Positions 547 to 60,252 of a stretch of DNA of 64,000 bases are shown here, in pieces; the first letter of the stretch is position 1; every line of letters starts with the position of its first letter. A program made the position numbers and the translations under genes. The notes under the pieces are model-generated. The model was given only the letters and a program-made list of their open reading frames with translations, made no database searches and was not told the origin of the DNA. Source of the stretch: Octopus vulgaris (Eukaryota); assembly GCA_951406725.2 (NCBI GenBank), contig OX597829.1, forward strand, positions 11,036,001 to 11,100,000, written 5' to 3'.

Positions 547-547
<1 letters not shown>

Positions 548-1045: not shown

Positions 1046-1698
<653 letters not shown>

Positions 1699-11780: not shown

Positions 11781-11990
11781 GATGCCGAGTTGGCCGAACC
11801 GTTAGCACACCGGGTAAAACGCTTAGAAGTATTTTGTCCGAAATTCTGTGAGTTCAAATTCCGTCGAGGTTGACCTTGCCTTTCATCCTTCTGGGTTGGT
11901 AAAATAAGCACCAGTTCAACAGTGGAGTCGATGTAATCGACTTACCTCTTCCCACCAAATTGCTAACCTTGTGTCATAATTTTAAATCAA
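11781..11990 (+). mobile_element. SINE-B copy (standard tail)
   Basis: Head gagttggccgaaccgttagcac, B-box gagttcaaattcc, core gcctttcatccttctgggttggtaaa. Confidence 0.75.
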
Positions 11991-12007
11991 TATGAGATCT
12001 ATCTAAA

Positions 12008-12215
12008 TATTGATTTCAAATTTTGGCATAAGGTCAACAATATCGAGGGGCGGGCTGGGGGTGGGTTAAGCCGAATACATCGATACCACTGTTCAACTGG
12101 TGTTTGTTTTATCGGTCTCGAAATGATAAAAGGTAAAGTAGACCTCAGCGGAATTTGAAATTAGAACGCAGAGATGGACAAAATGCCGCTAAGCATTTAT
12201 CCGGCATGCTAAAGA
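12008..12215 (-). mobile_element. SINE-B copy
   Basis: Reverse match to the SINE-B core and tail; tail-to-tail with the 11781 copy. Confidence 0.7.
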
Positions 12216-13469
12216 TCCTGCTTCTATTTATCCTAATAATAGCAACTCGCTGGTATTGGTTTCTGCAAAAAAGAAAACAGAGACGCTAACAACTATTATT
12301 ATTAATAATAAAAATTGTGTGAATTTTTCCCAGAATCCAGGGCGATTATATTTATTCCTTTGTATGAGAGGCAACTCTTCGGTTTCCACTATTCATTGAG
12401 CTTTCTCTTCAACGGAGCTGTTGATTGCTTAAAGCAGTAAATAAAACAAAAATCCTTGTGTTATTGAAGGCGACTGCAAAGCATATGAAACATTAGATAT
12501 AAAAACAGCAATTAGAAAGATATTGAAATGTTACATAAGAAATATTTAATCACTTTTGATATTCCAGTTTAAAGGCTTAAATAAGCGAGAGCGAAAGAGA
12601 TGATGTGTCTGTTTGTCTGTTTGTTGGCGTGTTGAGTTCTTGGGTGCGATATTTGAAATGCCGAGTAAAAAATGTAGAAATCTGAAGCCGGTACATAATA
12701 TATGATGTGAACTATTCTCTATTCCTCAATTCTGTATCCTAGCTTTTTCTGTTACTTCTTCGTCTATGTTATCTCACACGATATCAATAATACTGTACTC
12801 ATGCCAAATATATGCCAAGTTCTCTTTCCAAGCTATAACTAAAATTGAATCGTTCCAAAAATCTGTCTTCTATATAAGGTTCAAAAATACTTCAGCTCTG
12901 ATCGGTTTCTGGCCCTCAACACATGTTATGTACGATGCACATTCGAGTACTGGTCCCATATCTGACACAGAACTGTTATTACACATACTGACAGCACAGA
13001 CTGCACCAAAAATAAGACGAATTGGCGGCGTCATTAGAGTGTGGGCCACGAGGATCTACGTTATACCGGCTCTCTGAGTTCTGTGTTCAAAATCTAGCTT
13101 CTGCTTTTAACTCTTTCAGAGTCGATAAAATAAAGTTATATCCCTGGTGTGAGTATGGTGAGGATAGGACTGGCTGAATTGTTAGAACATTGGATGAGAT
13201 GCATTGTGATATTTGTTCCGACTCTTTTGTAGGTTGTAAACTCAATCTGTTGCCTGGTTTAATACCACCATTTGGTTTTCGGATACCTTTAGCCGAGTTC
13301 ATGCTGTTTGCTAGCATTCGGGTCATATCTCCTATTTGAGGATAACTTCCTCCCCTCTACTCAACAATATTAGGAGAGTTGAAAAATAAAAGGGCTGTGG
13401 GTGCTGCACTCCCCTCCTCGTTTAAGCTTTAGAAAACAATGTTATAGGATTGATTGTACATTACATTAA

Positions 13470-14799: not shown

Positions 14800-16066
14800 C
14801 TAGCTCAAAAGTCACCTGATAGGGCGGCTTTTAAGCTAGTGTATGGCTTTTAAGCAACTGACCCCGAATGGGAAGACTCTGCAAACAGATCTCTGACTTG
14901 TTTTGCAGAATTTGTTGCAATTGCTTCCTCCAGAGACATATCCAAATGATGATCATAGTCGTCGCAAAAAAATCATGTAAAAATAAAAAAATCGCCGAAA
15001 ACAATCGCAGTAATGAAAGCATAGGAATCGAAAATTTCAAGATTGCAGATCTGGATTCGGTCCAGAATGTCTTTAATTTACTCACGGAGCTAACCTTTTG
15101 ATTATAAAAAACTATTATCATACAAAAAAATTTGTCGCAAAAAATCACGTAAAAAAATCGCCGAAAACAATCACAAAAATGAAAACTTAGGAATTCAAAA
15201 TTTTAGTATTGTGACTCTGGATTCAGCCTGGAATGTTTTTAATTTACTCACGGAGTCAGCCTGATTCTAAAATGGTATGATATGTTGGGCTATGGCCTCT
15301 AGGAGTAAAGTTGAAAAAGTGTAACACACGGACATTCACATTTATTATATCATATATTATTATATTATATTAAGGCGGCGTGCGGGCAGAATCATTAGCT
15401 CGCCGAGCGAAATGTTTAGAGTATTTCGTCTGCCGCTACGTTCTGAGTTCAAATTCCGCCTAGGTCGACTTTGCCGTTCATCCTTTCAGGGTCGATTAAA
15501 TAAGTACCAGTTACGCACTGGGGTCGCATTAATCGACTTAATCCATTTGTCTGTCCTTGTTTGCCTCTCTGTGTTTAGCCCCTTGTGGATAGTAAAGAAA
15601 TAGGTACTTCGCAAAATAAGGCGGTGAGCTTGCAGAAACGTTAGCACGCCGGACGAAATGCTTAGCGGTATTTCGTCTGCCGCTACGTTCTGAGTTCAAA
15701 TTCCGCCTAGGTCGACTTTGCCTTTCATCCTTTCTGGGTCGATTAAATAAGTACCAGTTACGCTCTGGGGTCCCATTAATCGACTTAATCCGTTTGTCTG
15801 TCCTTGTTTGTCCTCTCTGTGTTTAGCCCCTTGTGGGTAGTAAAGAAATAGATATTTCGTCTGCCGTTACGTTCTGAATTCGAAATACACCATGGTCGAT
15901 TTTTCCTTTCATCCTTTTGGGGTCGATAAAATTAGTACCAATTACGTACTCGGGTCGATATAATTGAGTTAATGCCTTACCCCGAAATTTGAGTCCTTGT
16001 GCTTCCAGCAGAAAGGATTTATTAAAGTTGAAAAAGTGTGACACACTGACATTTATTATATTAGAT
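14800..16066 (-). mobile_element. Probable non-autonomous Helitron carrying nested SINE-B copies
   Basis: On the - strand it starts A|TCTAATATAATAAATG (~16065) and ends in an imperfect hairpin + CTAG|T (14800). Internal ~150-bp-period direct repeat 14984-15258. The 5' end also occurs at 15306-15350. Confidence 0.55.
15372..16018 (+). mobile_element. Tandem SINE-B cluster: Tx1-tailed monomer (15372-15612) plus dimer (15619-16018)
   Basis: Three core copies. Heads aaggcgg(c/t)g...gcagaa; tails tttgtctgtccttgtttg...tagccccttgtgg..agtaaagaaata. Confidence 0.85.
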
Positions 16067-22883: not shown

Positions 22884-23066
22884 TGGCCGAAATAAGATTA
22901 AGATTAATGTAAAAAATAAATATCACTGAAGCAAAATAACACCAAATATATAGTGCGTGTGTTTTTATTGGCTAAACTGGCAATATGACCATTCCGAAAT
23001 ATAACAATATCTGTTTCAACACACGACTTCACATAAAAAATCTTGCACAACAAATATTTAAACGTA
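22884..23066 (+). mobile_element. 183-bp copy of 11501-11683 inserted in (TTA)n
   Basis: Near-identical sequence and identical length; starts at the predicted hammerhead cleavage site. Confidence 0.85.
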
Positions 23067-23086
23067 TTATTATTATTATTATTATT

Positions 23087-26000
23087 CTATGTTTGACTTT
23101 TGTTTTACATTTGCACAAGCTGGCTCCAAGTCTCATCCAGAGACCTCAAGAGACAACAAGTTGGAAGTTCATGTTGGTGTTATGCCTAGGGTGCCATATA
23201 TTTGGTTTTGTACTTAGTGTTGTACTAGTGAATGCCTAAAAAAAACCATACGAAAATTGTTTGTTTAAAACTTGAGATTACGTAGAAAGTATTTTGCGTA
23301 GGATATGAGCTGTTCCCATGAACACTATCTTTTGAATTTCTGCCATTTGGGGGTTTCCTGCTTTCTGAGTCAGGTGGCAATCAGCCCCTTTTGCTATCAT
23401 TCCCAGGGCACCTATGACAACAGTTATTGTTTTAGTCTTCAGGTTCCAAATTTTGCTGATTTCTATTTCAAGATCTTTATATTTGCTCAGTTTCTGGTAG
23501 GTCTTGACAGATACGTTTATATCGATTGGGACAGTCATATCAATGAGGAGGCCTGTTCTTTGTCTGAAGTCGTTTACTATGATGGGTGGCCTATTCGCGT
23601 CTATCTTTCTGTCAGTTTGAATGGTGAAGTTCCAGAGGAGTGAGATGTGGTCATTTTCAAGCACTGGAGGTGGTTTTTGTTGCCACCAGTTTTTATCATG
23701 GGGCAAGTCAGGCTTTTGCAAATTACCCAGTGAATATATTGTGCAGCTCTATCATGTATGTTGAGATACTCTGTAGGCGCTAGAAGACTGCACTTGGAGA
23801 CAACATGATCAATGGTTTCATTTTGTTGTTGACATATACGACATGTTGGGCTACTGCCGTTCTTTAATATGTTGGCCTGGTAGTTCCTTGTAGGTAGGCA
23901 TTCATCTTGAGCTGCTGTGATAAACCCTTCTGTTTCAGATTTTAAGCCAGAGGCCATTAGCCATTGATGGGTCAGGGCTTTGTCAACATCTGCATTATTC
24001 GGTCTCTTTGGGTATTTGCCATAGAGAGGTTTTTCTTGCCATTTACCATTCAGAATATCTAAGGCAGCATATTTAGTACGGGTTTTCATGCGCTTAGCTT
24101 TTTCTGTGCTTGTTTCTTGTATGTCTAATTCCGAAATTTGTTGTATTCGGAATTCACTTAGATATTCCTTTGCCTGTTTTGTTACTGAGTATGATGCTTT
24201 CTTGTTTTCATGTTTTAAGACAAGTTTTAACATCCAGTCCTCAGAGTTTTTCTGGTAGGTGTCTAGGCCGATTGTAGCAATCTTCATTGTTATTGCCAGT
24301 TGTAAAAGTCCACGGCCTCCCCCTTTTCTTGGCAGATAAAGTCGTTCTATATCTGCCTTAGAGTGGTGCATTCTATGCATTGTCAACAGTTTTCGTATTT
24401 TTCTGTCAAGCTGACATATTTCAGTAATTGACCAGTTAACGATATTGAAACTGTAAGTCACGACTTTTATGGCTAAAGCGTTGATCGCTTCGATCCTGTT
24501 TCTCGCATTCAGCTCTGTCTTGAGTATTGCTCTTTTTCTGCGATAACATTCTGTTCTGATCCTTTCCTTCATCGCTGAATGCCTTATTCCATCCCCTTCA
24601 ATTACCCCTAGGTACTTGTAGCTCTCTGCTGGGTCTAACTCTTTTATGACATTCTGCTGGTCGAGGTAAACATTGCATTCTGATTGCAAAAAGCTTTAAA
24701 TCATCCATGTAAATGAGATGATTTATATTTTTACCAAACATTTTATATCCGTACTGTGCGTCATTGAGCAATTTTGAGAGAGGTATTAAGGCTAAACAAA
24801 AGAGGAGTAGTGATAGTGAGTCACCCTGGAAAATGCCACATGAAATTTTTACATCACCAGCATTTAGAGATTCACCGTCACTGTTCAAAGTTAGTGTGGT
24901 TCTCCATGATCTCATACTTACAGTCAAAAAGTTTCGCAGGGTAGGTGCTATTTTATACATTTCCAGACATTTCTTTATCCAGCTATGTGGTAGGCTATCA
25001 AAAGCCTTTTTATTGTCTATCCAGGCTATTGATAAGTATTTGTGTCGTTTGTGACAATCTTCTAAGATCATCTTATTGATGAGTAGCTGATCTTTACAAC
25101 CATAGGATCCACGTTTACATCCTTTTTGTTCATTAGGGAATATGCTGCTCTCTGTTAAAAAACTATAAGTATATTCCGTCAGGACAGATGTTAGCGTTTT
25201 ATACATAGTTGTTAAGCAGGTTATGGGTCTATAGTTTTTTGGTTCATTTGTTTCTTCACTTTTTGGGAGCAAGAATATTAAACCATTAACTAGCCAAGGA
25301 GGCATCCTACTAGGGTGTTGCAAAACATCATTGTACAGTTCTGTTAGCAGTTCATGGCTCTCTGGGAAGGCATTCAGCCAGAAGTTAGGAATTTTATCCT
25401 TTCCTGGAGACTTCCAATTGCTTGACCTCCTGAGAGCAGATCTTATATCTTCTACCTTGACACCCTCCCACTTTTGCTCTTCTAAGGAGTCCAGTTGTGT
25501 AGATATTCTATCAATTCAAGGGGCCTTTTCGTTGTGTGTTTTTTCTTCTGCCCCAATTTTATTCCAAAAATCGTGCACTTCTTTTGATGGTACAGACTTT
25601 ACAGTAACTGCTGTTTTCCCTATCTTCCTGTAAAAATTTTTGTGGTTATTTTTGAACATGTTGTCCTTGAAGAATCTAACACGCTTTTCATACCTCGCTA
25701 TGCGGGCAGCTTTAGCAGATACCTATTGCTTGATGGTTTCTATGGTGGCATCAATATCAAGTATAGTTTTCATATATTCTTTCTTTAATTTTGGGGTTTT
25801 TGTAGGTTTGGTAGTCTTGTCAACCTTAAGGTTTTTCAAACATTCAATGTCAGACCTAAGTAGTTTAATTTAATGTTGGATACGCTCCTGCCAAGAAGGC
25901 TTTTTGTGGGAATGTTGCCGTTTTCTAATCTTTACACCACATAGGATCGTTGAGATTTTCGCGGATGCATAGTACAGGTTGTTGAGATCTGTGATATTAA

Positions 26001-27820
26001 CATCATTAGCTGAAATTATATCCTTAAGTGCAAGGCGGATTTTACCAATTATTTTCATGTTTTGGTTAGAGTTGTGGATTCTCGGGAGTGTATCGCGTTT
26101 ATCCATAATGGTTTCTTTAATTTTCAGCCATTCAATCATGATTTGATTTTTTAGCTCATGTAGTTCTGTTGGGTCAATATTTGTGTGACTTTCTTTATCT
26201 ATTTGATGTTCATCTGTCTTAGTGTTTGTGATTGGTTCAGTGAGTATTTCACTTTGCCAATCAGTTATACTAGCTCTTCCAATCCTTACTGCGTTTTTAT
26301 CAGCCCTGGGCTGGTCTGTAATTATTTCCTCTGTATTATCTTCTTTAACTGCAGCTTCGTTCATTCTATCCGTTACTGCTTGTCTAATTTGATCAATCTC
26401 TACTTCAGTCAGTAATTGTTTTTTATAATGTTTCTTCTGACGTTGGCAGGTTTGTTACTGTCTGTGTAGGGTCTTACTTCAGGGTGTTTCTGTCTCCAGT
26501 TTATGTAGGTTTGTATAGTGTTAGATTTATCTTTGGGGAAATATATGGCATGGTAGAAGGCCATAAGAGCCTCTTTATTATCTTCCCGAGACCATCTTTC
26601 ATTCTTTTTCTCTTGGTTATTTGATGACGGGCATGGATGGCCATCTGTTGGAATATTTCGGTTGTGGGGTACGTCCAGCTCCTGTGTGTATGGAAGATTT
26701 AAACCAGTGGCTGATTTTTCAATCAGAATTTGGTTCAATGTACGGGTTTGTGGTATTTTGTAAACCGATCAATGACCATTGCGGTTTGTAATTTGTTTTG
26801 TTGACATTGAGGCATGACGAGCTTCGGCTGTTACATTAGGAGTCGGATCTGTTAGTATAGGGTTAGGTTTTTGCGACTACACCGCATCTGAACGTAAACA
26901 TCGCTCGTAGGGTAATTTCTTAAGGCTAGCAGATCTGTATTCGCCTGTATTTTTTTGTTTATAGAATTACCTCCGCACATAGTTTTTCTTGTAGTGTTTT
27001 TTAAACTTATGAAGGGTTCACTCTGTCTGTGTTAGTTCGAAAAAATGATAGTAAAATAAGAAGAAAACAAAAAGATCTGTCGGTAAAGGGTTCAGTTCTT
27101 GCGACGACACCGTCTCTGAATGTAAACATCACCTGTAGCGTAATTTCTTAAGGCTCGCAGATCGGTATTCGTCGGTATTTTTCTATTTATAATTTTGTTG
27201 TTGGTAGATTTACCTCCGGACATGGTTTTTTACTTCTTTGTGGTGCTTTTTACCCTTATGAAAGGTTCACTCTGTCTGTGGTAGTTCGAAAAAATGAGAA
27301 GTAAATAAGAAGAAAAACAAAGAAAGTTTTGATTTTGTTTTTGCTTGTTTTGTGACACGTTTTTTCACGTGCGTGAGTGTGTGTCCTGTAAATTTCACTT
27401 AGTGTGTTCAACTTTGGGATGTATGTGTAGTCCTATGGGTATCAAAATGTATATATGATCGTGTAGACATTCGAGTGTATGCGTAATTACTCAATTTATG
27501 TACTCACTATTTTTATTTATTTTGGTCCGTTTCTATTTTAATCTTTCCAGTGTTGATATCGTGCGTGTGTCCCGCACATGTTTCCTTGAGACACCGTGCG
27601 TAGGAGAAACTGTACTTTCTATGGCAGTAAAATTTCGTTTTAGTCTTAGTGTCTTCGTTAAAAGGTCGCTTCCTTCGAGTTTTCCTCAAGTTCCTTTATC
27701 TAATTCCATCGATGTTATTGGATTAGATTTGTTTTTGAATGGAGAGACCGGTTTAGTACATCCATGTTGTTATTCAGTGCGGGCTTCCTTTCTCCTTATT
27801 ATTGTTCGGCTTCCTCTCTC
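23087..27820 (-). mobile_element. R4/Dong-clade non-LTR retrotransposon (RT + CCHC + restriction-like endonuclease), near full-length, degenerate, in (TAA)n
   Basis: NYRPITCL, AWIDNKKAFDS, GIFQGDSLS, YMDDLK, CRICQQQNETIDHVVSKC, RP.IIV.D...LIDMTVP...KYKDL, VVIGALG; (TAA)n on both sides. Confidence 0.92.
23278..26738 (-). pseudogene. Dong/R4 single ORF, multiple frameshifts and two RT deletions near 24670-24690
   Basis: ORF pieces 26738-26409, 26364-25870, 25323-24598, 24689-23601, 23721-23278; compared with the second copy. Confidence 0.88.
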
Positions 27821-29028
<1,208 letters not shown>

Positions 29029-32000
29029 CTATGTTTGACTTTTGCTTTGTGCTTGTACAAGTTGGCTCCAAATCTCACTCAGAGACCTCAAGAGACCACA
29101 TGTTGGAAGTTCACGTTGTTGTTATGCCTAGTGTGCCATATATTTGGGGGGGGGGGTTGGTGTTGTACTAGTGAATGTCTAATAAATAAATTTTTTTTAA
29201 AAAGAGTTTATTTTAAACCTTGAGATTACATAGAGAGTATTTTGCGTTGGATATGAGCAGTTCCCATGAGCACTATCTTTTGAATTTCTGCCATTTTGGG
29301 GTTTCCTGGAATCTGAGTTAGGCAGCAATCAGCCCTTTTCGCTATCATTCACAGGGCACCTATGACAACAGGTATTGTTTTAGTCTTCAGCTTCCACATT
29401 TTGCTGATTTCTATTTCAAGATCTTTATATTTGCTCAGTTTCTGGTAGGTCTTGACAGATACGTTTATATCGATTGGGACAGTCATATCAATGAGGAGGC
29501 ATGTTCTTTGTCTGAAGTCTTTCAATATAATTTCTGCCCTGTTTGAATCAATCTTTCTGTCAGTTTGAATGGTGAAGTTCCAGAGGAGTGAGATGTGGTC
29601 ATTTTCAAGCACTGGAGATGGATTGTGTTCCCACCAGTTTTTTTTTTTCATGGGGCAAATCCAGGTTTTTGTAAATTACCCAGTGAATATATTGTGCAGC
29701 TCTATCATGCCTGTTGAGATACTCTGTAGGCGCTAGAAGACTGCACTTGGAGACAACATGATCAATGGTTTCATTTTGTTGTTGACATACACGACATGTT
29801 GGGCTACTGCCGTTCTTTAATATGTTGGCCTTATGTTTCTTGTTAGTAGGCATTGATCTTGAGCTGCTATGATAAACCCTTCTGTTTCAGATCTTAAGCC
29901 AGAGGCCATTAGCCATTGATGGGTCAGGGCTTTGTCAACATCTGCATTATTCGGTCTCTTTGGGTATTTGCCATAGAGAGGATTTTCTTGCCATTTACCA
30001 TTCAGAATATCTAAGGCAGCATATTTAGTACGGGTTTTCATGCGCTTAGCTTTTTCTGTGCTTGTTTCTTGTGAGCCTAATTCCGAAATTTGTTGTATTC
30101 GGAATTCACTTAGATATTCCTTTGCCTGTTTTGTTACTGAGTATGATGCTTTTTTGTTTTCATGTTTTGAGACAAGTTTTAACGTCCAGTCCTCAGACTT
30201 TTTCAGGTAGGTGTCTAGGCCGATTGTAGCAATCTTCATTGTTATTGCCAGTTGTAAAAGTCCACGGCCTCCCCCTTTTCTTGGCAGATAAAGTCGTTCT
30301 GTATCTTCCTTAGGGTGGTGCATCCTATGCATTGTCAACACTTTTCGTATTTTTCTGTCAAGCTGACATACTTCAGTAATTGACCATATTGAAACTGTAA
30401 GTCACGACTGGTATGGCTAAAGCGTTGATCGCTTCGATCCTGTTTCTTGCATTCAGCTCTGTCTTGAGTATTGCTCTAACTCTTCAATAACATTCTCTCC
30501 TGATCCTTTCCTTCATCTCTGAATGCCTTATTCTGTCCCCTTCAATTACCCCTAGGTACTTGTAGCTCTCTGTTGGGTCTACTTCTTTTATGACATTCTG
30601 CTGGTCAATGTTATCGTTAGATGTTTCTGTCATTTTTCCTTTGATAAATGTAGCTTTTGCACATTTATCGAGGCCAAATTGCATTCTGATGTCGTCACTG
30701 AATTGTTTGACTATCGCTAGTAAGCCCTTGAGTTGTTGGTCATTTTTTGCAAAAAGCTTTAAATCATCCATGTAAATGAGATGATATATATAATTATCAA
30801 ACATTTTATATCCGTACTGCGCGTCATTGAGCAATTTTGAGAGAGGTATTAAGGCTAAAAAAAAGAGGAGTGGTGATAGTGAGTCACCCTGGAAAATGCC
30901 ACATGAAATTTTTACATCACCAGCATTTAGAGATTCACCGTCACTGTTCAAAGTTAGTGTGGTTCTCCATGATCTCATACTTACAGTCAAAAAGTTTCGC
31001 AGAGTAGGTGCTATTTTATACATTTCCAGGCATTTCTTAATCCAGCTATGTGGTAGGCTATCAAAAGCCTTTTTATTGTCTATCCAGGCTATTGATAAGT
31101 ATTTGTGTCGTTTGTGACAATCTTCTAAGATCATCTTATTGATGAGTAGCTGATCTTTACAACCATAGGATCCACGTTTACATCCTTTTTGTTCATTAGG
31201 GAATATGCTGCTCTCTGTTAAAAAACTATAAGTATATTCCGTCAGGCAGATGTTAGCGTTTTATACATAGTTGTTAAGCAGGTCATGGGTCTAATTTTTT
31301 TGGTTCATTTGTTTCTTCACTTTTTGGAAGCATGAATATTAAACCATTAACTAGCCAAGGAGGCATCCTACTAGGGTGTTGCAAAACATCATTGTACAGT
31401 TCTGTTAGCAGTTCATGGCTCTCTGGGAAGGTATTCAGCCAGAAGTTAGGAATTTTATCCTTTCCTGGAGACTTCCATTTGCTTGACCTCCTGAGAGCAG
31501 ATCTTATATCTTCTACCTTGACACCCTCCCACTTTTGCTCTTCTAAGGAGTCCAGTTCTGTAGATATTTTGTCAATCCATGGGGTCTTTTCGTTGTGTGT
31601 TTTTTCTTCTGCCCCAATTTTAGTCCAAAATCCCTGCACTTCTTCTTTTGATGGTACAGACTTTACAGTAACTGCTGTTTTTCCTATCTTCCTGTAAAAA
31701 TTTTTTGGGTTATTCTTGAACATGTTGTTGTCCTTGAAAAATCTAACACGCTTTTCATACCTCGCACTGCGGGCAGCTTTGGCAGATACCTTTTGTTTGA
31801 TGGTTTCTATGGTAGCATCAGTATCAAGTATAGTTTTCATATTATATTTCTTCATTAATTTTTGGGTTTTTGTAGGTTTGGTAGTCTTGTGAATCTTAAG
31901 GTTTTTCAAATATTCAATGCCAGATCTAAATAGTTTAATTTGATGTTGGATACGCTCCTGCCAAGAAGCCTTTTTGTGGGAATGTTGCCGTTTTCTAATC

Positions 32001-32382
32001 TTTACACCACATAGGATCGTTGAGATTTTCGCGGATGCATAGTATAGGTGGTTGAGATTTGTGATATCAACATCATTAGCTGAAATTATATCCTTAAGTG
32101 CAAGCCGGATTTTACCAATTATTTTCATGTTTTGGTTAGTGTTGTCGGGAGTGCATCGCGTTCATCCATGCTGGTTTCTTTAATTTTCAGCCATTCAATC
32201 ATGATTTGATTTTTTAGCTCATGTAGTTCTGTTGGGTCAATATTTGTGTGACTTTCTTTATCTATTTGATGTTCATCTGTCTTAGTGTTTATGATTGGTT
32301 CAGAGAGTATTTCACTTTGCCAATCAGGGAGTATTTCACTTTGACAATCAGGTCTATAATCATTTCCTCTGTATTATCTTCT
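29029..32382 (-). mobile_element. Second, 5'-truncated copy of the same R4/Dong family
   Basis: Highly similar to 23087-26343; same 3' terminus next to (TAA)n; RT, CCHC and RLE motifs. Confidence 0.92.
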
Positions 32383-35222: not shown

Positions 35223-37251
35223 TGCTACCAAGTTGTCGCGTTGTTTTTCGTCGCGGTGGAAGTCATGTCGTACGTGAAAAATTGAACATTTGAAGCATGA
35301 CCACAGGTAAAGCATTTGGTTTTTGGGAGCTTAGTGGGGTCTGCTGTTTGTATTTAAGTATTTTTTCGAACAGGGATCTCCACTGGGTTCCAGGCATTTT
35401 TTTGCCAGGAGTCATGCAAGAAGATTCACTTCGTAGTGAGAATTGAGTTGGGAGGCGCGTCCCTCCGAAAATGTTTTGGAATTTTCTATGACTGTGTTTG
35501 TGCCCTTTCAAGATTTTTACCATAAAGGATAAGAGTACAGCCAGAGTTGGACGGAATACTATTTGTGCTGTGAAGGACTACCAGTTTGGATTACCAGAGT
35601 AGCAGAATTGTGTTGTGTTGCCATTTTCGACTATCTTCCTTCGCTCTTTCTTCTCCTGTCTGTCTTTCTGATCATTTTTGAGTTTCTTTATAGACTTTCA
35701 TTTGAACATTTTGATTTTTGTTTGTGGATTTTTATTATTTTTGTTTTGGCTATCAACATGGCAACTGTGAAATCCGCTTTGGAGTGGAAAATTGTGGCCC
35801 CCGAAAAATGGTTGAAAAATTATACGGAGAGAACGGTGGTGTTAAGGACTTGTTCCAGGGTCCTTGACACCATCAAGGTCTTCTCTCAGGAAGAAATTAA
35901 GGAGTTGGCAGACTATCTGCAGGGGGGAGAAGTATGGAACTGTGTGTGTACTTTTTGACGCCCCTGTGGAAGCACGTGATTTTACGAGCATGCTTTGGAG
36001 GGGGAGAAAATTTTGTTTCTCCCTACTTACGGCGGTAGAAAGTTGACAAGAGCCTGGATGTGTGGTCTGCCACCCGGTATAGAGGCCGAGTGGAAAGAAG
36101 ATACTATCCGTCGGGTCCCGGGTGGCGGGCCTGCCAGGCTTTTAAATGTAAAAATGTGGCCTGCGGTTGATTGGGTTGGGTCAAAAGCAATTTTGACCCT
36201 ATGGATCCAATCAGTCGATGATCTGGTTTTACCAGATTTTTTAACAATGGCCGGTTCCAGGTATCTGGTGATGGTTGAGGGACGTCCCCCCAAGTGACAT
36301 CTGCGCCTGGAATCGGGCCATATAAAGAACTGTTGCCGGGAACAGACAGGGGTCTGGAACAGTTGGCTGAAAAGGTGTCCCCTAGTCCCCCACTGGAGGA
36401 AAAAGTCGAGGAGGAGGCAACATCCTCGAAAACAAAGGGGGAAAAAGAAAGAAGGGGCAACAATGGTTTCCTACCGATGAATCCTGAGACGGCGGGGCGG
36501 GGGTCCTCCGGAGATGTCGGAGGAATTCCATCCTACCGTCGTAAAAAGAAAAAAGAAGAGAAAGAAGAAAAATGGGGCATTGCCGGCGACGGCATGTCCT
36601 GAGATCACTTCGGTTGGATGTGTGCAACCAGAGCGGAGAGAAGATAACCTCGTCATTCGGATGTGTGCCACCGAGCGAGGGAGTTGAGGCCCCTCCCAGT
36701 AAAAGTGGTTAAGAATATATGTTCTATCTCAGTGGAAGAGCTATTGACAGTTTCGTGGAGAATGATATGGATAATCGGGTCCTGAGAAACCTGACTTGTA
36801 TAGACAGCCCAGAGTGGCCTTCGCAGGTGGCTGCTCTGGTGCTGGAAAGAAAGTACTGTGATCTTAGAATTGACTCATGTAAAAACGAGAATTATAGAAT
36901 TCTTTTTTGGAGACCCGGATTGCAGTTTCAGGAATGCCTGCAAGTTGCAAGGAAATTGCACGGGGAAGATTTGTAGAGGTTTATCGCCTCTAATTTGTGT
37001 ATAAATTATGTTTTGTATTTGTGTAGACTTTTGAGTTCAAATATATTGTATTTTAAACTGTAAGAGGGTTAATACCTCTGTATATGTGTTTTTAAAGAAC
37101 AATGTTTTAAAGAAGCAGAGGGTCGGCGGGCGCTTTCTCTCTTCTCCCATCCTTATCATCTTGTATCATTATCATTCGCCTCATCAATGTCTTGTCTAGC
37201 CCGCAAAGCTACCCATCTCTGTACTGCCTCTATGGCAAATGAAACGAATAA
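35223..37251 (+). mobile_element. ORF1-only (HAL1-like) non-autonomous Tx1-related retroelement
   Basis: 15-bp TSD (35208-35222 / 37252-37266); decayed ORF1 homologous to the Tx1 ORF1 at 59848; no EN/RT; 3' TGCC-N5-GGCA hairpin + AATAAA. Confidence 0.85.
35758..36976 (+). pseudogene. Tx1-like ORF1 protein, frameshifted, decayed zinc knuckle
   Basis: TERTVVLRT, RGEKYGTVCVLF, LFLPTYGGRK, VMVEGRPPK*HLRLESGHIKNC align with EKRTVVFKT, RGRAYGTVDVRF, VLFPSYRGRR, VQVEGRKPTCYACGKKGHIRVDC. Confidence 0.8.
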
Positions 37252-41032: not shown

Positions 41033-41553
41033 AAATAATATTCTAATTGCAATATCTTTTGTTATCTAATTTGCTCACTAGCTCCCTCTCTAAACTATTT
41101 TCTCTGTAGTTACTTCTTTTAATTCTTTGCTATTCTAATTGCCGTTTCCGTTATAATCTCTTTTTACAACGTTCCACCAGATGTTGTTGGTGATCACTCT
41201 CATCAGTCGCCACCAAAATAATTTGCTAATCTGATTTTTAGCTTCTAGGGTACCTGGATTCCGATGTATAATTCCAATTTAAACCCATCACAAATTTGTT
41301 ATCTGTGTTTCAACCATTTAACAATACACATATTTGAATCCACTGGCGTAACAAATTCTCTATCTGAATAAGACCTGGACCACTCCATGAGGGTTTTTTT
41401 CCATGTCTACACACTGGAACATTCGGAAGATCCCATCTGTACTTGCCAGGAAGATGGAACTGCCTGATCAGATTTGCAAGTCTTTTATACATACTTCTGT
41501 TATTTGTCAATCTCACAGACCCAGCGTTCATTTGATATTTCATTCTAGTCAAA

Positions 41554-41990
41554 TGCGGTGAGCTGGCAGAATTGTTAACGCGTCGGAAAAAATACCTAGC
41601 GGCGATTTTCCGTCCTTACGTTCTGAATTCAATTGCCGCAAGGGTCGACTTTGCCTTTAATCCTTTTGGGGTCGATAAAATAAATACCAGTTGAGTATTG
41701 GATTCGATGTAATCGATTTTCGCTGAAATTGCTGGCCTCGTGCTGAAGGTTAAAACTATTATTATTGTTGTTGTTATTCAAAAACATTTTGTTTTGGTTG
41801 TTGTTATCGTCGTCGTTGTTGCTGTTGAGCCTCAAGTCGGCAGAATTGCTAGCACGCTGGACAAAATACTTGGCGACATCTCTCCCTTCTTTACATTCTG
41901 AGTTCAAATTCCGCTGAGGTCAACTTCGTCTTTCATCCTTTCGGGGTCGATAAAATAAGTACCGTCACCCAAATTTCAGACATTGTGTAG
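41554..41990 (+). mobile_element. Two SINE-B copies
   Basis: gcggtgagctggcagaattgttaac...ggggtcgataaaa at 41554 and a second copy from ~41836. Confidence 0.75.
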
Positions 41991-48096: not shown

Positions 48097-48325
48097 CCGG
48101 AGTAAACACATAAATGTGAAACAAGGTGGAAAAAAGAGTACTCAAATACCAGTGGTAGAGTAATATGCTTTATTTTAAGCAGCAGAAAATTCAACAAAAT
48201 CTGTTACTCTGAGTTTCTCGTTGCCGTTCATCAGACAGTTTTTGCTAGAAAAAACTGTCTGATGAACGGCAACGAGAAACTCAGAGTAACAGATTTTGTT
48301 GAATTTTCTGCTGCTTAAAATAAAG

Positions 48326-48377
<52 letters not shown>

Positions 48378-48847: not shown

Positions 48848-49486
48848 ATATTCATCACCTAAAGGTCGACATTGAGTTAGAACACACACATACTGCGATA
48901 TTAACCAAAAGAGAAAAACTTTCATATGGTTTTTAGTGCATAAAAGCACATCGTAGCTATCGTCAGCGGTAGACAACCACCGCTTCTTCTGCTGCCAGAA
49001 CTACCAGATCACGTGACTCACCGTTTCTTCCGGTGCCAGGACTACCAGATCGCCTGAGTTCGGCTTCTTCTGGCCTTGTCAATGATAGATAACTCTCCGT
49101 AGAAAGCAGTAACTGCTGTGCTAGCGATATACATAGAAATACAAACCCCAAAAAGGCGCTGGTGTTGCTAAAAAGCCAGAGGGCTTATAAAAAAATAAAT
49201 AGAGCAACAGAAGCAGTATTTTGGTTCTGTATTTCTATGCATATTGGTAGCGCAGCAGTTACTGTTATTTCCAGCGGTGAGGTACCTATCGCTAACAAGG
49301 CCAAAAGAGGCCGAGATCACACGATCCGGTTGTCCTGGCAACGGAAATAGCAGTGGTTGTTTACTGCCGGCAATAGCGATGATGTGCTTTTATAGACCAA
49401 GAAACTATATGAGAGTTTTTCTCTCTTCATAAACATTGCAGTATTTGTGTGTTCTAACGCAACATCCACTTTTAAGTGGTGAATAT
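48848..49486. mobile_element. ~640-bp foldback (imperfect palindromic) non-autonomous DNA element
   Basis: Left arm atattcatcacc...aaaagcacatcgtagctat...cagtaactgctg...atagaaatacaaacc pairs with right arm ggttctgtatttctatg...cagcagttactg...gatgtgctttt...gtggtgaatat. Confidence 0.8.
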
Positions 49487-50794: not shown

Positions 50795-51388
50795 CAATCT
50801 TTCAGGATGATAGTGCACCAATTCTCACAGCTAAAGTGGTTACTGAATGGCACGAGGAGCATTCTAGTGAAGTTGAACATCTTATTTGGCAAAACACAGT
50901 CCCCAGATCTCAATATTATTGAACATTTATGGTAAATTTTAGAAAAACAAGTCGATATCCTCCACCATCATCACTACAAGAACTGGAGACTGGAAACTGG
51001 AGAAGGCGGTGAGCTGGTAGAAATGTTGGCACGCCGGGCGAAATGCTTAGCAGTATTCCGTCTGTCTTTACGTTCTGAGTTCAAATTCCGCCGTGGTCGA
51101 ATTTGCCTTTCGATAAATTAAGTACCAGTTTATGCACTGGGCTCGATGTAATCGACTTAATTCCAATGTCTGTCCGTGTTTGTCCCCTCTATGTTTAGTC
51201 CCTTGTGGACAATAAAGAAATATGAACTGGAGACTGTTTTAGCTGAAGAATGAACAAAAATTCCTCCGGAAACAATTCAAACTTTGTAAGAGTCCATACC
51301 TCATAGAATTCAAGCTGTAATTACTGCCAAAGGCGTTCATACTCCATATTAAAATTAATTTGTTTGAAATTTTAAGGTGTTTCCATTA
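50795..51388 (+). mobile_element. Tc1 transposase 3' remnant interrupted by a SINE-B
   Basis: FQDDSAPI...QSPDLNIIEHLW; continues after the SINE with ESIPHRIQAVITAKG. Confidence 0.8.
51003..51222 (+). mobile_element. Tx1-tailed SINE-B monomer with TSD
   Basis: Flanked by aactggaga on both sides; tail gtttgtcccctctatgtttagtcccttgtggacaataaagaaata. Confidence 0.85.
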
Positions 51389-52859: not shown

Positions 52860-54275
52860 TTACCCGTTTCAGCCATGAGGCTGCGGTCATTCTGGAGCAC
52901 CACTGTGGTCTTTCTAATTTCCTCAGTCGCGAGTATTTAGCATTACCACTCTTGTATATGCCTTTGTTATAGCTTTTGGCCCATTTAGTGTATAAGGGAG
53001 TTTGTTCCCCTTGCCCTCATCTGCATCTCATGTTAGGCTGTTGGTTCATCTGGTATTGTGGAGAAGAGGATGTCTAGTTCCTTTTTGAAATCATCTACTT
53101 CCACCTGATGCAGATTTTAAAAATTTTTGTGGCAAGGCATTGAAGAGCTGTGGGCCTCTAAACCCTAGTCTATTGTAGTATGCATCCTGAATTTTGATGG
53201 AGTGGTTGGTGCGTTTGGTACAATACAATGGCGGCCAGTTCTAATATTTGTATAACACTCAATGCCCGAAATTAGGTACCTGTCCTAGAGTTTTTCATAT
53301 GTAGATTATTGCACACCTCTCGCGTCTTCGCTCCAGGGACTAAAGATGCAGTTCTCTCAGCCTATCCTTGTAGCTCATCCGCTGCACTTTCAAACTCTAT
53401 AGCATAGTAGCGTTAGACTGCTTCAAGCTCCACTGTTACTTTGGTACTGTGTGGTGACAATAACTGGGAGCAGCAGGGTCAACATAGTTTCTTGGTTTCT
53501 TGTCTTGGAGGAACTCAGCATCCATTCTGCCAGTTGTTTGCACTTGGCTGCCATTTTGATAATATGCATATGAAATGATGCGTCATTGCACATACTGATC
53601 CGCAAGTCTTTCTCTGCCTGTAACTCTAGGATTGTAGTACCTTCGGGTCCCTTATATGTCGGCTGTAGTGCATTCATGACTTGATAGTACAGTATTTGAA
53701 ATTTTCCAGCATTAAACTGCATGTTGTTTATTTCGGCCCACTTGTATATCGAATTCAGGTTCCGCTGTAAGCTTGCGATGTCATGATTTTTTGTTGCCTG
53801 TGATAATTTTGTATCATCGGCATGGCTAGTGACAGTGGCTGTCCAAGTGAACGTGGGCATGTCTAAAAGGGTTATTATGAACAGTAATGGCCTCAGAATA
53901 GTTCCTTGGGAAACGCCACTTATGATTTGAGTTTCCTCAGAAAGGGCACCATTGGCTGCAACTACCTGACTTCTGCCTTTAAGGAATTCATGCAGCCACT
54001 CTCCTACTTTACCAGCAATGCCAAGGTTTCGTAGCTTATGAGATATCATGCCGTGATCTACCTCAACAAATTCCTTTGGAAAGTCAAGGTATATCACGCT
54101 GACGTATGAATGTTTCAAAACCCAGTCAAAGTACTGCAGGAGTTGTACGAGGAAGCCTCTTCCTGGACGCAAGCCATGTTCTGTATTGTTCATTTGGTCA
54201 TTTTCTTTTAGGAACATTATCAGCTTCTTTCTGATGATTCGCTCCATGACTTTACTAATAGACACTGGCCTTTAG
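52860..54275 (-). mobile_element. 5'-truncated CR1/L2-group LINE (degenerate RT + 3' UTR)
   Basis: VIYLDFPKEF..VDH, SGVSQGTILRPLLF, HADDTK, WAEINNMQFN..K, EKDL; the 3' end matches the SINE-A tail. Confidence 0.85.
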
Positions 54276-54387: not shown

Positions 54388-55005
54388 TCTTTTACTCTTT
54401 TACTTGTTTCAGTCATTTGACTGCGGCCATGCTGGAGCACCGCCTTTAGTCAAGCAAATCGAACCCGGGACTTATTCTTTGTAAGCCCAGTACTTATTCT
54501 ATCGGTCTCTTTTGCCGAACCGCTAAGTGACGGGGACGTAAACACACCAGCATTGGTTGTCAAGCAATGCTAGGGCGACAAACACAGACACACAAACATA
54601 TACACACACGCTTATATATATATATATACATATATACGACAGGCTTCTTTCAGTTTCCGTCTACCAAATCCACTCACAAGGCATTGGTCGGCCCGGGGCT
54701 ATAGCTGAAGACACTTGCCCAAGATGCCACGCAGTGGGGCTGAACCCGGAACCATGTGGTTGGTTAGCAAGCTACTTTATTTCATATAATTTGCCATTTA
54801 GGCATTTACAAAGAGGGGACAAACAAGGACAGACAAATATAAAGGGTGAAGTAGCTTAACACAGTTACAATTTTCGAATGAAATTACGGATAAGATTATA
54901 AACAATGAATTTTACGAAGGCAATGTTTAAAAATATTAATGATCATGTCGAAGGACGGACACCCAGCCATCCGGGTAGAACCTTTACTTTCTGATCCGGT
55001 CACAC

Positions 55006-58000
55006 TTACCTGGTGCCAAACATACCGATCTTGTATGCCACAGGCTTCCATCTTTTCACAAACATATCTCGTGACAGACACCTCTTCTCCAGCCTGATTT
55101 TGCTACAGAGGTGGTAACTAAAAAAGTTAATCAACCCCTGGCCGGAGACAAAGGTGCCTGTCACTATACCTTTCGTACGCGTCTTCCATACTGTTTCTTT
55201 CAGTATGGCTACTACACAGAAAAAACAAGCCTTTCTTTCCCTGTTAAGGAAAGGGGGCAGCACAATCTCGATGATAGACTCAGCTGATAGCTGTACTCTT
55301 CCCATCACTGACAACAGTTGTTCAACAAAAGCTATCAGTCCCGATAACTCCGGACACTCCACGAATGCGTGCAAGACGGTCTCCCTATCCTGCTCACATC
55401 GCGGGCATGTCGGCGAGACGGCACTACCGTGCCTTGAAAGCTTGTCGCGAACAGGTAAAGCCGCACGGAAACACTGCCAGGCTAGGGATTTCTGGTAATT
55501 ATACAGATACCCCGGCCCGAACGTCCTCCGGAACAGGTTGACCAACTGATTTTCATCGTAGCCCAGGGTCTCCCCCAAGGCGTCTTCGGACTTAATCTCC
55601 ACTAACCCGCTATAGAAATCCGTGGTGGAACTCCTGTTGCCGGCGTTGCCCACCCGAGATAGTAGCTGGAGCGCCTGACGGCACTCCAAATGCCGTTCAC
55701 TCAGTTTAGGTCTCCGCTTGATCCATGCACCGATGTCCGTTAGGGATGTTAACTGGGGAAGGTAGAACCGGACGTGCGGCGACCACACCTGCTCTCCATC
55801 CAGGTAAATACAGAGGTGCCTCAACCTTAACGCGAGTTTTCGCATCCTCAGCCAAGGCATCCCTAGCCCACCCTTCAGCGGTTTCTGGCAGCAGACAGAG
55901 CGCTTTACAAGTGGCTTTCCTCCTTTCCACAAAAATCGGAAAAGGATTCTCTCCAACTTGTTCAGCCACAAATCGAGGCAAGGCACCACGGTCAGACGGT
56001 AGGTGATTACTGATGCTATAAACATCTGCACCACCTCCGCCTTCCCTAGCAGGGATAACGCCCGCCCAGACCAGGTCTGGGTTAGAGCGGTCACCTTGTT
56101 GGCCACCTCACTCCAATTTTTCTCAATCTGGATCTGGCCCGAACCAGACTCCGAGCAGCTTAACAGGACCTTCCGTCCAACGCCCTACGACGTTATTGGA
56201 CGGCATCGGCTTGCCCCTCCAGGTGCCGAGTTGCAAACCGACCGACTTGTCCTTGTTAACCTTTGCTCCTGCCACCGCCTCGTAGCTTTTGATGGCCTCT
56301 TCCACCACTGGAAGCTGGCCTTCGTCTGCCACGATGATGGAGGTGTCATCCGCATACGCCGTAGCTCCTCTTCCACACCATAGATCATGCGGCGCGCCCC
56401 CTAGTGCCTCCAACTTCCGCAGCAAAGGCTCAAGAGCCAATACGTATAGGAGCGAGGACAGGGGACACCTTTGACGAACTGAACGCTCGATCCTGAACGG
56501 CTTCGAAAAGGAACCGTTCACCTTGACTACAGACTCGATGTCGCTATAAAAGCAGCGATCCAACCTCGAAAGGTCGGGCCTAGGCCAGCCTCTCCGAGGA
56601 CCGCCGCCAGGTACCGATGGTCGACCCTATCATATGCTTTGGACTGGTCTAAATGTACCAGTGCTCCCCCTGCGCCAGAAAGCTTCCTCACCCTCTCTAA
56701 GGAGTAGTGTATAAGGTGGAGATTGTCGTGGATCGTTCTGCCGGGGATAGCGCACGTTTGCGCTTCCCCGACAAGTTTGTCCACGACCCGCGCCAACCTT
56801 TTTGCTAGCACCTTGGCCAGAATCTTTAACTCTGTGTTTAACAGAGTTATGGGCCTGAAGTTCCCTATCTCGTCCCCCTTGTTCGGGTCCTTCCTGATCA
56901 ACGTCACCGCCCCCCGGCTCGCAGACTTGGAAATCCTCCCATTCTGCTGCCAGTTGGCGTAGACGCTAGCCAGCAGGTGCCCGAACAAGTCTGGCATACT
57001 TCTATAAAATTCATAGGGCAGACCATCGAGACCCGGCGACTTCTCCCCGGGGCACTTGCCCAACACCTCGATTACTTCCTCGGCTGTGATTGGCCCTTCA
57101 CAGCACTCAGCCTCTCGTGTCGAGAGGCGCGGGCCACCAGACAGGAAGTCCCTAAGGGCCTCACTTTGATCCAGCGTCCCGCACCTCCCGAACAACTCGG
57201 CGAAGTGCTTGTGAAGTGCCTCACACATCTCGTCCCGCTTCTTGATCGTGCATCCGTTTTCATCAACAAGAGACCCAATTGTGGCATCGTTTCCACGCTG
57301 TGTTTCTATCGTACGGGCCCATCCGGCAACATTAATTCCCTCACGGCCCAATGCTCGTACTTTAGCCCGGACTCTACATCCCTCATGTTTGGTTTTGAGG
57401 TGACGGTCTAATGCCGTTCTCGCCGCTAAAATGTGAGATGCAGAGCCCAACCTCAACGCCTCCTCTAAGTTCTTAACTAGTTGCCCTTCTATTCTAGCCC
57501 TATCTAGTCTTAGTTGTTTACTAAATCTAATGGACTCGAATCGAATGGCTCTTTTGAGGGTGAACCACCACCGGTTATTAACCACGGCTCCGGTTAACGC
57601 CCTCTGCACTAACACCTTAATCCGGCTACGGTATGCCTCGCGTGTCAAAATAGACTTGTTCAGCTTCCAGTAGCCGGTTCCTATCTTAAGTGTGCTATCT
57701 ATGTCCAGTCTACACGTGACCATTCTATGGTCAGTATAGGGCGCCTGGACGAGCTGTGGACAACTAAAACTAGACTTATCTCTAGTTCTTATCACTATCC
57801 TGTCTAGATAAGACTTGAACCTTCCGTCGCCACTCATCCAGGTCCACTCTGGGACGTTCGGATGGTCAAGTCTGTAATGATCTGCTAGCTGAAACCGCTT
57901 AAGCAGATCCACGAGACGTGAGTTCACTTTCCTATAGATCGAGCCAACGCTATCGATGTGTACGTCAACGATAGCATTAAAGTCCCCTAATATCACTAAA

Positions 58001-58404
58001 GTCTTCGACGTCACGAGAAAGCCCTCTAGGCGCCGATAAAAATCAGTTTGGAAACCTCTAGCACAAGGTGCATAGAGTCCGATCAACCTGAAGGCCTTAC
58101 TGCTGTATGTCACATCAAGGACGACCAGCCCACCTTCTGGGTCTACATAGACTGTACTTGTCTGTAGAGCCAAGTCTTTACGGATCAGTACCACTACGCC
58201 CCCTCGCCCTCCGGTCTGGCCAGGAGACATGATTTTCTCGTAGCCATTCAGGAGAGGCGAGAAGGTTTGTAGGCTGTCCAGCTTGGTCTCTGTAGCAACC
58301 ATCACATGTATATCATGTGATCTGAGGTCGTCGAGGAAACAAGCCTGCTTCCACTTCGAACTCAGACCACGCACATTTAAACAACCAAGGTTAAGCGAAG
58401 CCAT
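55006..58404 (-). pseudogene. Tx1 ORF2 (apurinic endonuclease, reverse transcriptase, C-terminal zinc finger), two frameshifts (~56545, ~56115)
   Basis: LNVRGL, TETK, LGDFNA, SYLDRI, TDH, GYWKLN, KSPGLDGLP, NFRPITLLN, LDQSKAYDRVDH, RQRCPLS, YADD, GGLGMP, CPRC...ETVLHAFVEC. Confidence 0.95.
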
Positions 58405-58421
58405 TACAAAAAGTAAAAGTT

Positions 58422-59848
58422 CTACTTACATTTCGTTGGAGGGGTGGGGGCCGACCTCACCACACGTTTGTGGGCCCCTTCTTTCTCCTCTTTCTTCAGA
58501 TAGTCCGGCAAGTTCGCGATATGCCGGATGGCGTTTGGGTGTCTGTCTTTTAATTGTTTGAACGTTGTTTCCGCAATCCACGCGTGTCTATTTCGATCTT
58601 TGTATTTGTTGTACAGTCTTGCTGACTGATGCTGAACCACAATATCGTTTATGTATTTGTCTTGTGTGTCGAATTCAATTAATATGAGTTCATTTTCTTT
58701 TTTGTCTTCTTTTTCTGGGCCAGTTGAGCGGGATTTTTTTTTTCGTGTCTGTGGTGTGTCTTTGTTTTTATTATTTTTTGTAGGGGATGTGGACGGGGAT
58801 GCTGCACGAATTATTTTACGAACTGGTGTAAATCCCCCCTCTGATACCTTCATGGTATCGTCTGGGGTAGCAATAGTTTGTTCGGTAGGCGCCGCAGTTT
58901 TTAGGGGGTGGGAGGTTTTAATAGTGTAGGGGTTTGTGAGTGCGAGGGCTGGGTTTTTTCTTCAGTCTGTTTTGGGGTTGGCACCGTAACGGCAGGAGTG
59001 GGATTTTTTGTTTTTGTAGGGGTAGGTGTGTTTGCAAGGGTAGGGACTTTTTTATTATCTGAGGGGCCTGGTGTCTGCGGTTTCTTTTGCTTGTCTGGAC
59101 AGTCTACACGAATGTGGCCCTTTTTGCCGCAGGCGTAACAGGTGGGTTTTCGGCCTTCGACCTGTACCCTGAGGGCTACGTTCTCGCCCACGAGCACCCT
59201 CTCAGGAAGGAGCTGAAGGTCCTCCGCTGTTCCTTGAATTAATATATTAATGTTACGCCCGAGCCAAAATCGAGGGGTAGAGCATGTTACTTCTAGTATT
59301 TTTATTTTGTCCGCCCTTTTATATAGCAGGGCGGCCACTACCTCTACCGGATCTACTTCCGGCGGGGCTTCTACAATCCTGACCCGGGACGTCCTGCGTC
59401 CCCTATAGCTTGGGAAAAGTACCACCTCCTTGGTTTTTAGGGGGTTCCCAGAATGACCGCGGGCCATTTCTTCCCCTGAGAAGCGGACATCCACAGTGCC
59501 ATATGCCCGTCCCCTGGCGACGTACACGATGTCCTTCCAAATCGGGGACAGGCATTTCTCGATGGTGCTTTTTTCAAAGTGTTTGAACCTTCTGCTTTGT
59601 GGACAGAAAGTTTTAAACACTACGGTCCGCTTCTCGGTCTCCACGATACTGGCGGAGGGTGATATTTTAACATCACCACCCTCCTCTTGCATTCTTTTAA
59701 ATAGCTCGACGAGCTGGTTGACATCGATGTCAATGTTGTCGGTAGCCACTGCGGCTACCTCAGAAAATTTTTTAACATTGCTCTCCTCAAGAGCACTACT
59801 TTCGTGAATAATTTCAACAGACATTATTCTGTTGAAATTAGACAACAC
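58422..59848 (-). CDS. Tx1 ORF1 (RNA-binding, CCHC zinc knuckle), one frameshift near 58900
   Basis: CYACGKKGHIRVDC, then a Pro/Thr/Lys-rich tail continuing in ORF 58853-58422. Confidence 0.88.
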
Positions 59849-60252
59849 AAAAATTACGAGTATTGGTTTCCCACAAAACTGGGAAACCTATAGAAAGTTT
59901 TTCTTCCAAAGTAGTTCAAAAAAGCAGTTCAAAAATTCCAATTCCCACCCCCATTCGGGGGAGGGGCACGAAAATAGTCTGGCAGGACTATATATAGTCA
60001 CGTAAATAAAAAGCCACAGTGGCTAACAGTTCAACGGTAAGAAATTATTCAATTATTTCCCGGTAAAACCGGAGAACAAGACAGTTCAGCAACGTTTAAA
60101 GGCAAATTTTCAGTAGTAGGAATTCAACAATTAACAACACAGCAAAACTCTTACCGGGAAGAAAACGCGTCCACACCGTAGTACGGTAGGCAAAGTCACT
60201 CTTCTGTCAGTGAGGTTAGCAAAGCTACTTACCACACAGCCACTCCTGCGCC

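Follow-up and report, generated by a model that had tools for sequence, protein, structure and literature searches.

What marks the 3' end of an L1-type retrotransposon whose copies lack poly(A)? The question is raised by a Tx1-like long interspersed nuclear element (LINE), here called Tx1-A, in a stretch of 64,000 nucleotides (nt) of Octopus vulgaris DNA (G000:C16:11036001-11100000, G000 being the 2.8-Gb assembly of this genome; hereafter the window). The original prediction held that Tx1-A, a second Tx1-like family (GATA-Tx1), an element with only the first open reading frame (ORF1) and a short interspersed nuclear element (SINE-B) share a terminal stem-loop that is recognized by the ORF2 protein (ORF2p). 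All four motifs are present at element 3' ends, in each case after a pyrimidine-rich stretch and without poly(A). Across the Tx1-like lineage this hairpin is kept by compensatory change and is under selection as a structure. Element and group names (Tx1-A, SINE-A, SINE-B and the letter groups) are working labels. The elements that carry the four motifs are as follows.

54778-60213, minus strand: Tx1-A, a full-length Tx1-like LINE (ORF1 with a zinc knuckle; ORF2 with endonuclease, reverse transcriptase [RT] and zf-RVT)
54792-54804, minus strand: 3' hairpin of Tx1-A, TGCC-TAAAT-GGCA, 14 nt before the element end
35223-37251, plus strand: ORF1-only non-autonomous element (about 2.0 kb) flanked by target duplications, in the SINE-A site that Tx1-A also uses
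37225-37237, plus strand: 3' hairpin of the ORF1-only element, TGCC-TCTAT-GGCA
547-952, minus strand: 5'-truncated GATA-Tx1 copy (3' untranslated region) in a (CTAT)n microsatellite, with the hairpin GCC-CTGTGT-GGC at 560-571
15618-15850, plus strand: SINE-B copy with a Tx1-type tail, the hairpin GCCC-CTTGT-GGGT at 15826-15838 and, by eye, an A/B-box-like head

Tails were surveyed at 140 loci (three places being counted twice), 30 of them found through the GATA tail and 110 through protein searches that did not use the tail. The ORF2 C-terminus was matched at 132 loci; the 3' end could be called in 123, the other nine being truncated or interrupted. Clustering at 90% gave 37 subfamilies, with window copies representing two clusters. 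After four redundant GATA singletons were dropped, tails were aligned by sequence alone in 35 rows (33 Tx1-like subfamilies, the ORF1-only element and SINE-B), with the ends fixed by a per-family rule.

On this alignment RNAalifold predicts only a 4-bp hairpin, in which both sides have changed at all four pairs. The proportion of cells that pair is 87.9%, against 62.5 ± 2.8% in shuffles, and 42 cells carry a double change against 12.7 in shuffles (reached by 0 of 500); in slid registers at most 51.5% of cells are paired. A tree-aware null was built by redistributing each column's changes over the branches of the ORF2 tree (33 rows, with a sister copy substituted for the truncated GATA copy). 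Here 108 of 124 cells are paired against 80 ± 10, and about 5.6 branches carry double changes against 0.6, neither value being reached in 3000 trials. The slid controls were reached by tree-aware nulls in 291 and 781 of 1000 trials for cells paired, and the double changes of the +1 slide in 29 of 1000. The original prediction would have been refuted by a lack of covariation across families; covariation is strong and survives the tree-aware control.

The same conclusion follows from the individual rows. At least four pairs form at one anchor in 28 of the 35 rows. No slid anchor gives more than 10 such rows, and swapping the arms among rows gives 12 ± 2 (0 of 20,000 swaps reach 28). A single 4-bp stem is common, since about 36% of shuffled rows contain one at the correct distance; across rows the hairpin is not chance, because the count of 28 exceeds both the slid-anchor and the arm-swap controls. 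Identity is 48% in the arms, 69-70% in the flanks and 63.5% in ORF2 DNA. The stems seen are TGCC/GGCA, GCCC/GGGT, GCCC/GGGC, AACC/GGTT, ATCC/GGAT, ACCT/AGGT, GATC/GATC, GATT/AATC and AATC/GATT, closed by a loop of 4-7 nt that ends in AT or GT (a purine in 34 of 35 rows, then T in 33 of 35). A covariance model made from the tails gives eight window hits at E < 0.001, all of them ends of the four element types, although four of these belonged to its training set. Beneath the hairpin, a candidate lower stem (the pyrimidine stretch with AATAAAGA) is predicted in many single folds and is 81% paired, with no covariation and a value reached by 456 of 1000 nulls.

What follows the hairpin is 11-15 mixed, A-rich bases. 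No A-run of eight or more was found at the ends of 123 Tx1-like, 30 ORF1-only or 30 Tx1-A copies, and the insertions do not end in poly(A) as those of relaxed, poly(A)-dependent L1 elements do. A scan of 125 loci, most of them without a 5' junction, revealed a direct repeat of at least 11 bp in 21; two of these had miscalled ends, leaving 19 usable target duplications. In 16 of the 19, the element ends 15-19 nt past the first base of the 3' arm, or 11-15 nt past the 4-bp stem. The distance from the 3' arm to the AATAAA hexamer, by comparison, ranges from 4 to 15 nt. Because the spacing is fixed to the end and variable to the hexamer, the hairpin is tied to the start of copying and not to AATAAA. 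The hexamer, which the original prediction had counted among the constant parts of the shared tail, does not hold that place: it is AGTAAA in the window SINE-B, and Tx1-A itself stops at 54778 with GAAATA, so that its AATAAA is completed by the target, the last two A's lying in the target duplication. The ORF1-only hexamer is similarly target-completed.

Two passenger types carry the tail. The ORF of the ORF1-only element has 23-33% identity to Tx1 ORF1s, and no ORF2 C-terminus was found upstream of its tails (0 of 30). With an ORF1 homologue, no ORF2 and target duplications, it is an ORF1-only LINE derivative, presumably HAL1-like. The DNA it has in common with Tx1-A is confined to the last ~50 nt. 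With a query free of target bases, 21 of 30 ORF1-only copies were found at the A-group target (the SINE-A site).

The second passenger, SINE-B, is present in the window in further copies.

15372-15602, plus strand: SINE-B copy with one stem mismatch
3868-4097, minus strand: SINE-B copy with an intact stem
51003-51222, plus strand: older SINE-B copy with the stem GTCC/GGAC, both sides changed and the pair kept

SINE-B shares 3' sequence with Tx1-like LINEs, as in stringent LINE/SINE pairs, and its copies stop just past the tail according to their target duplications (in the older copy, a 13-bp duplication begins at this point). Its hairpin is of the B/C-group type, with GGGT and GGGC variants as in the LINEs. 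The hairpin and end match B/C-group Tx1 and the upstream 21-mer matches Tx1-A, leaving no single partner family. None of 67 SINE-B rows lies at the A-group target, and in 24 the tail is followed by part of a SINE head. When the tail model was applied to 40 stretches of 10 kb at fixed positions (400 kb), 45 of its 51 hits were SINE-B and six were Tx1-type ends. SINE-B also occurs as head-to-tail multimers (window 15372-15990; L283, L287 and L163) whose later units start at head position 17 or 50; these could be explained by self-targeting or template jumping.

GATA-Tx1 is represented by a second truncated copy.

1047-1580, minus strand: second truncated GATA-Tx1 copy, with its hairpin at 1059-1070

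A Tx1-type ORF2 lies upstream in sister copies at 22 of 30 loci. The stem of the window copies has three pairs only, whereas other GATA subfamilies have four (AGCC/GGCT). This stem is present in further GATA tails (26 of 30 loci called), among which the automatic rule chose a G-T-rich register in 20 loci and two read GGCC or GGCA.

The remaining features of Tx1-A concern its tail and its insertion site.

54808-54837, minus strand: pyrimidine-rich tract preceding the hairpin; SINE-B has the same first 21 nt
54849-54857, minus strand: 9-nt reverse complement of the target within the tail (A group only)
54762-54777, minus strand: 3' target-site copy in SINE-A, giving the last two A's of AATAAA at 54776-54781
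60214-60230, minus strand: 5' target-site copy with one extra T, which is present at tandem junctions too

Frameshifts break both ORF1 and ORF2 in the window copy; an open ORF2 of 1150 codons is found in near-identical copies elsewhere in the genome. The host site is the tRNA-like head of SINE-A, flanked by copies of AAGTAGCTTGCTAACC. The target at all 20 protein-selected A-group ends (19 places) is the SINE-A site or a variant of it. Tx1-A copies occupy this site in 30 of 30 cases, but this count was given no weight in judging target preference, since 13 target bases were part of the search query. Tx1-A starts with a copy of its own target (window 60214-60230), and therefore each insertion can rebuild the site. 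Head-to-tail Tx1-A arrays occur at L190 and on C2, the latter with four ORF2s ~5.4 kb apart (G000:C2:73046133-73062761). A-group and ORF1-only tails (L121-L140) contain a 7-9-nt reverse complement of the target, which in the A group lies 64-80 nt before the end and which was not seen in the other groups. The motif departs from the usual form in L132 and L133, where it is AGCTTCTT; the L133 target, of the AGAAGCT type, has the corresponding change, and that of L132 is degenerate. SINE-A has a tail of its own, with a 5-bp hairpin CAGTC-AAAT-GACTG before short GTAAAAGA repeats (window 54410-54423, minus strand), and a separate RT fragment (RVT_1) lies just downstream of the SINE-A host (window 53423-54271, minus strand).

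The ORF2 of this lineage comprises an APE endonuclease, an RT and a C-terminal zinc domain, and its closest solved structure is human L1 ORF2p (PDB match, E-value: 8e-67). The CCHC zinc knuckle of ORF1 matches PF00098. Protein searches returned no named Tx1 protein among the matches, the nearest named match being from Argonauta hians (65%); the Tx1 label rests on features. In a tree of the families with outside relatives, the Tx1-like families and an Argonauta protein form one clade, apart from poly(A)-ended distant L1-like loci. Targets of the families include the SINE-A site, (CTAT)n, U1 snRNA and others, with duplications of 11-20 bp; some families (B group) have no clear target. In the H group, the end of one copy abuts the 5' end of a U1 snRNA gene (L207:1396-1559; Rfam, 125 bits), and another copy lies near an 18S rRNA fragment (L175:148-308).

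By analogy with stringent LINEs and with the structure of human L1 ORF2p, the reader of the hairpin is likely to be ORF2p. In the human protein, a template stem-loop lies on the C-terminal segment, from which the active site is reached over 15 nt of single-stranded template (PMC10830416). The octopus hairpin is probably, though far from certainly, a stringent recognition signal as well as a start-site setter, by which ORF2p would choose its RNA template and fix where copying begins. The proposed model is as follows. The element RNA would be longer than the insertion, through read-through or polyadenylation further on. The stem may dock on the C-terminal surface of ORF2p, like the Alu-like stem on human L1 ORF2p, from which a short single strand would thread to the active site. 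Copying would then start internally, so that no A-tail is copied. Passengers would be mobilized by the family that has the same tail and would take over its target. Three observations agree with the stringent recognition foreseen by the original prediction: insertions lack poly(A), a SINE shares the tail, and tail type corresponds to target site. The AATAAA part of the prediction does not hold, the hexamer not being the conserved anchor.

Several observations weigh against this model. The stem is marginal, with a pair probability below 0.5 in nine of 34 folded tails. Under the automatic rule, 85 of 123 single copies reach four pairs, 27 reach three and 11 reach two or fewer; the 38 copies below four pairs are mostly 3-bp GATA and (TTA)n families or old copies, together with some misses of the rule. 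Loci L137, L138 and L205 have no 5' arm and yet have normal ends. The L137 and L138 junctions have one genome match each (in an exact search, which is blind to diverged sisters), and their missing arm fits, short of proof, a later deletion. Three target duplications give spacings of 6, 11 and 20 nt, and the small spread in the per-copy end survey is partly built in, since the ends were set by a per-family rule. The target match of ORF1-only copies could stem from the target-complementary motif (present in 22 of 30) or from read-through target sequence. Finally, crocodilian SINEU mobilized by Tx1 have poly(A), and for the 3' end of SINEU-1 no LINE counterpart was found (PMC4494074); the poly(A)-less trait is thus not Tx1-wide.

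The alternative that survives best is a purely positional role: the hairpin would do no more than set where reverse transcription starts, while template choice would be relaxed and the poly(A) of the RNA would still be needed, as for Alu on human L1 ORF2p, but skipped. The human protein binds the stem without much sequence specificity, and unpairing the stem mainly scatters start sites (PMC10830416). Stem letters likewise vary freely in Tx1-like tails, and nearly every element end has an AATAAA-like hexamer, whether original or regenerated. Against a purely positional role stand the nearly fixed purine and T at the end of the loop (34 and 33 of 35). SINE-B, which is presumably transcribed by Pol III, has taken over a long piece of the tail in place of an A-tract, and tail type tracks target site. 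On balance this alternative is unlikely, with some weight left to it.

A decidedly less probable explanation is that host factors, and not ORF2p, read the hairpin as a signal for RNA processing or stability (polyadenylation at AATAAA, termination or an exonuclease block). In most families the hairpin does lie next to AATAAA, and a U/GU-rich stretch precedes it, although the spacing is fixed to the insertion junction and not to the hexamer. The elements also end ~5 nt past the hexamer, nearer than usual cleavage sites, which lie farther on. Moreover, the A group lost its proximal hexamer and kept the hairpin, and no Rfam family, including the histone stem-loop, matches the window, where Rfam and ARAGORN scans returned nothing. 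The histone 3' stem-loop (consensus: 6-bp stem and 4-nt loop) was rejected as a candidate on this ground and because the octopus stem has 3-4 bp with variable letters. That the tails are homologous and the 4-bp stem incidental, as the commonness of short stems and the lack of covariation in the lower stem might suggest, is largely refuted and very improbable, given that pairing in the core stem is above all three kinds of null (swap, slide and tree-aware) and that the arms diverge faster than the flanks yet stay paired.

Relatives outside the genome carry similar ends. A sister clade (~51% RT identity) was found in contigs filed under a bacterial metagenome-assembled genome (L371-L410), as tandem arrays of intact Tx1-like elements with a period of ~6.5 kb, each ending in two hairpins; these contigs are probably mis-binned animal DNA. 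All 20 distinct ends read AAGGC-CT(T/C/A)GT-GCCT, followed by a second hairpin and AATAAA, without poly(A). The loop matches that of the B/C groups and the stem, AAGGC/GCCTT, is of inverted polarity; it lies farther from the end because the second hairpin intervenes. The second hairpin has no double changes on the automatic alignment, and its outer pairs differ by eye. Within the octopus genome, SINEs that combine the SINE-B body with at least three other tails (window 15853-15990, 41552-41963 and 11787-12221; L251-L290) terminate in an inverted hairpin. These inverted-stem sister SINEs end in CCCC...AAAA...NGGC-CTTGT-GCCN (outer pairs T-A in five, G-T in four and A-T in four), and their tail resembles that of the sister clade. 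A matching LINE was not found in the genome: a SINE body preceded 16 of 17 such hairpins and the remaining one lay in an apparent diverged SINE, and a search with the outgroup protein gave only GATA-group families in the 30 loci read. Of 80 distant L1-like metagenome loci (~27% identity), a long ORF together with sufficient 3' flank was present in 31; several terminate in AATAAA and poly(A), and no common hairpin was seen. As single copies they serve as contrast only. A search of viral contigs was without yield.

Stringent hairpin tails are known in most LINE clades. The original prediction placed Tx1 in a lineage usually regarded as poly(A)-dependent, a description that applies to mammalian L1; stringent L1-clade tails occur in monocots and Chlamydomonas (PMC3472496). 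The pairs described are maize LINE1-1_ZM with ZmSINE2/3 (monocot 1a) and Chlamydomonas L1-1_CR with SINEX-3_CR (PMC3472496, PMC3747384). As in the octopus, an L1-clade LINE and a tRNA-type SINE share ~50 nt of 3' end, with a compensatory hairpin of conserved loop letters and variable stem, and stringency is inferred from sequence. Their hairpins are more stable (-11 to -18 kcal/mol) than the octopus stem of 3-4 bp, and the Chlamydomonas pair ends in poly(A), whereas the octopus elements have neither poly(A) nor a terminal repeat. Unlike these plant and algal pairs, the octopus lineage is animal, target-preferring and fixed in spacing, and has an ORF1-only passenger too. In stringent LINEs of the L2 and R1 types (UnaL2, ZfL2-1/2 and SART1), a small 3' stem-loop is recognized by ORF2p and the tails are copied by SINEs (PMC4176376, PMC3747384). 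Those elements belong to other clades and end in tandem repeats or poly(A), and their recognition has been demonstrated by experiment. The "TX1" of PMC4176376 is the name of a construct, not the clade. Human L1 ORF2p is of the same enzyme superfamily as the octopus Tx1-like ORF2, but needs at least 20 A's, read base-specifically, and the human L1 3' untranslated region has no such stem, whereas the octopus LINE carries the stem itself (PMC10830416). Crocodilian Tx1-Mar/SINEU is likewise a case of Tx1 targeting another mobile element with passengers that share the target, although all SINEU have poly(A) tails, unlike the octopus passengers (PMC4494074). Table 1 of PMC3747384 contains no pair involving Tx1, its three L1-clade SINEs coming from plants or algae, and 13 recently active L1-Tx1 families are described in O. 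vulgaris (PMC13282606). Literature searches turned up neither a poly(A)-less animal Tx1 with a hairpin tail nor a Tx1-tailed SINE, although Repbase reports, older work by Ohshima/Okada and Kojima/Fujiwara or supplements may describe one.

Two other features of the window stand apart from the Tx1-like elements. Another LINE is present in two copies (23065-26264 and 29007-32327, minus strand) that end in (TAA)n arrays, with a different, longer hairpin ~45 nt before the end that does not match the tail model; it is presumably R4/Dong-like. A near-perfect palindrome of 168 bp (97.6%) lies at 48163-48330, and a longer, looser inverted repeat at 48848-49486.

A wider scenario is put forward tentatively, as one that is rather doubtful in its entirety. 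An animal lineage of the L1 superfamily may have swapped the reading of poly(A) for a hairpin ruler: a mini-hairpin whose loop ends in AU or GU would dock where human ORF2p holds the Alu stem, and copying would start 11-15 nt downstream, inside the RNA. The signal would predate octopods, the same loop being present in the sister lineage (~51% RT identity), and would serve as an address label by which passengers are matched to driver families and their targets. Several SINE families that jointly make up a large part of the genome, the inverted-stem sister SINEs among them, would have acquired it.

Whether ancestral L1 was stringent or poly(A)-relaxed is a question that Ohshima proposed to test in new L1 lineages (PMC3747384). 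In the octopus lineage, young copies have open ORFs, compensatory stems form a natural series and passengers of two types occur, and therefore stringency is directly testable in the closest structural relatives of human L1 ORF2p. For the very abundant SINE-B, with its 45 tail-model hits in the 400 kb sampled, a likely driver can be named. Developers of RNA-templated gene-insertion tools would likewise have an interest in an L1-type enzyme that prefers certain targets and picks its RNA through a short tail.
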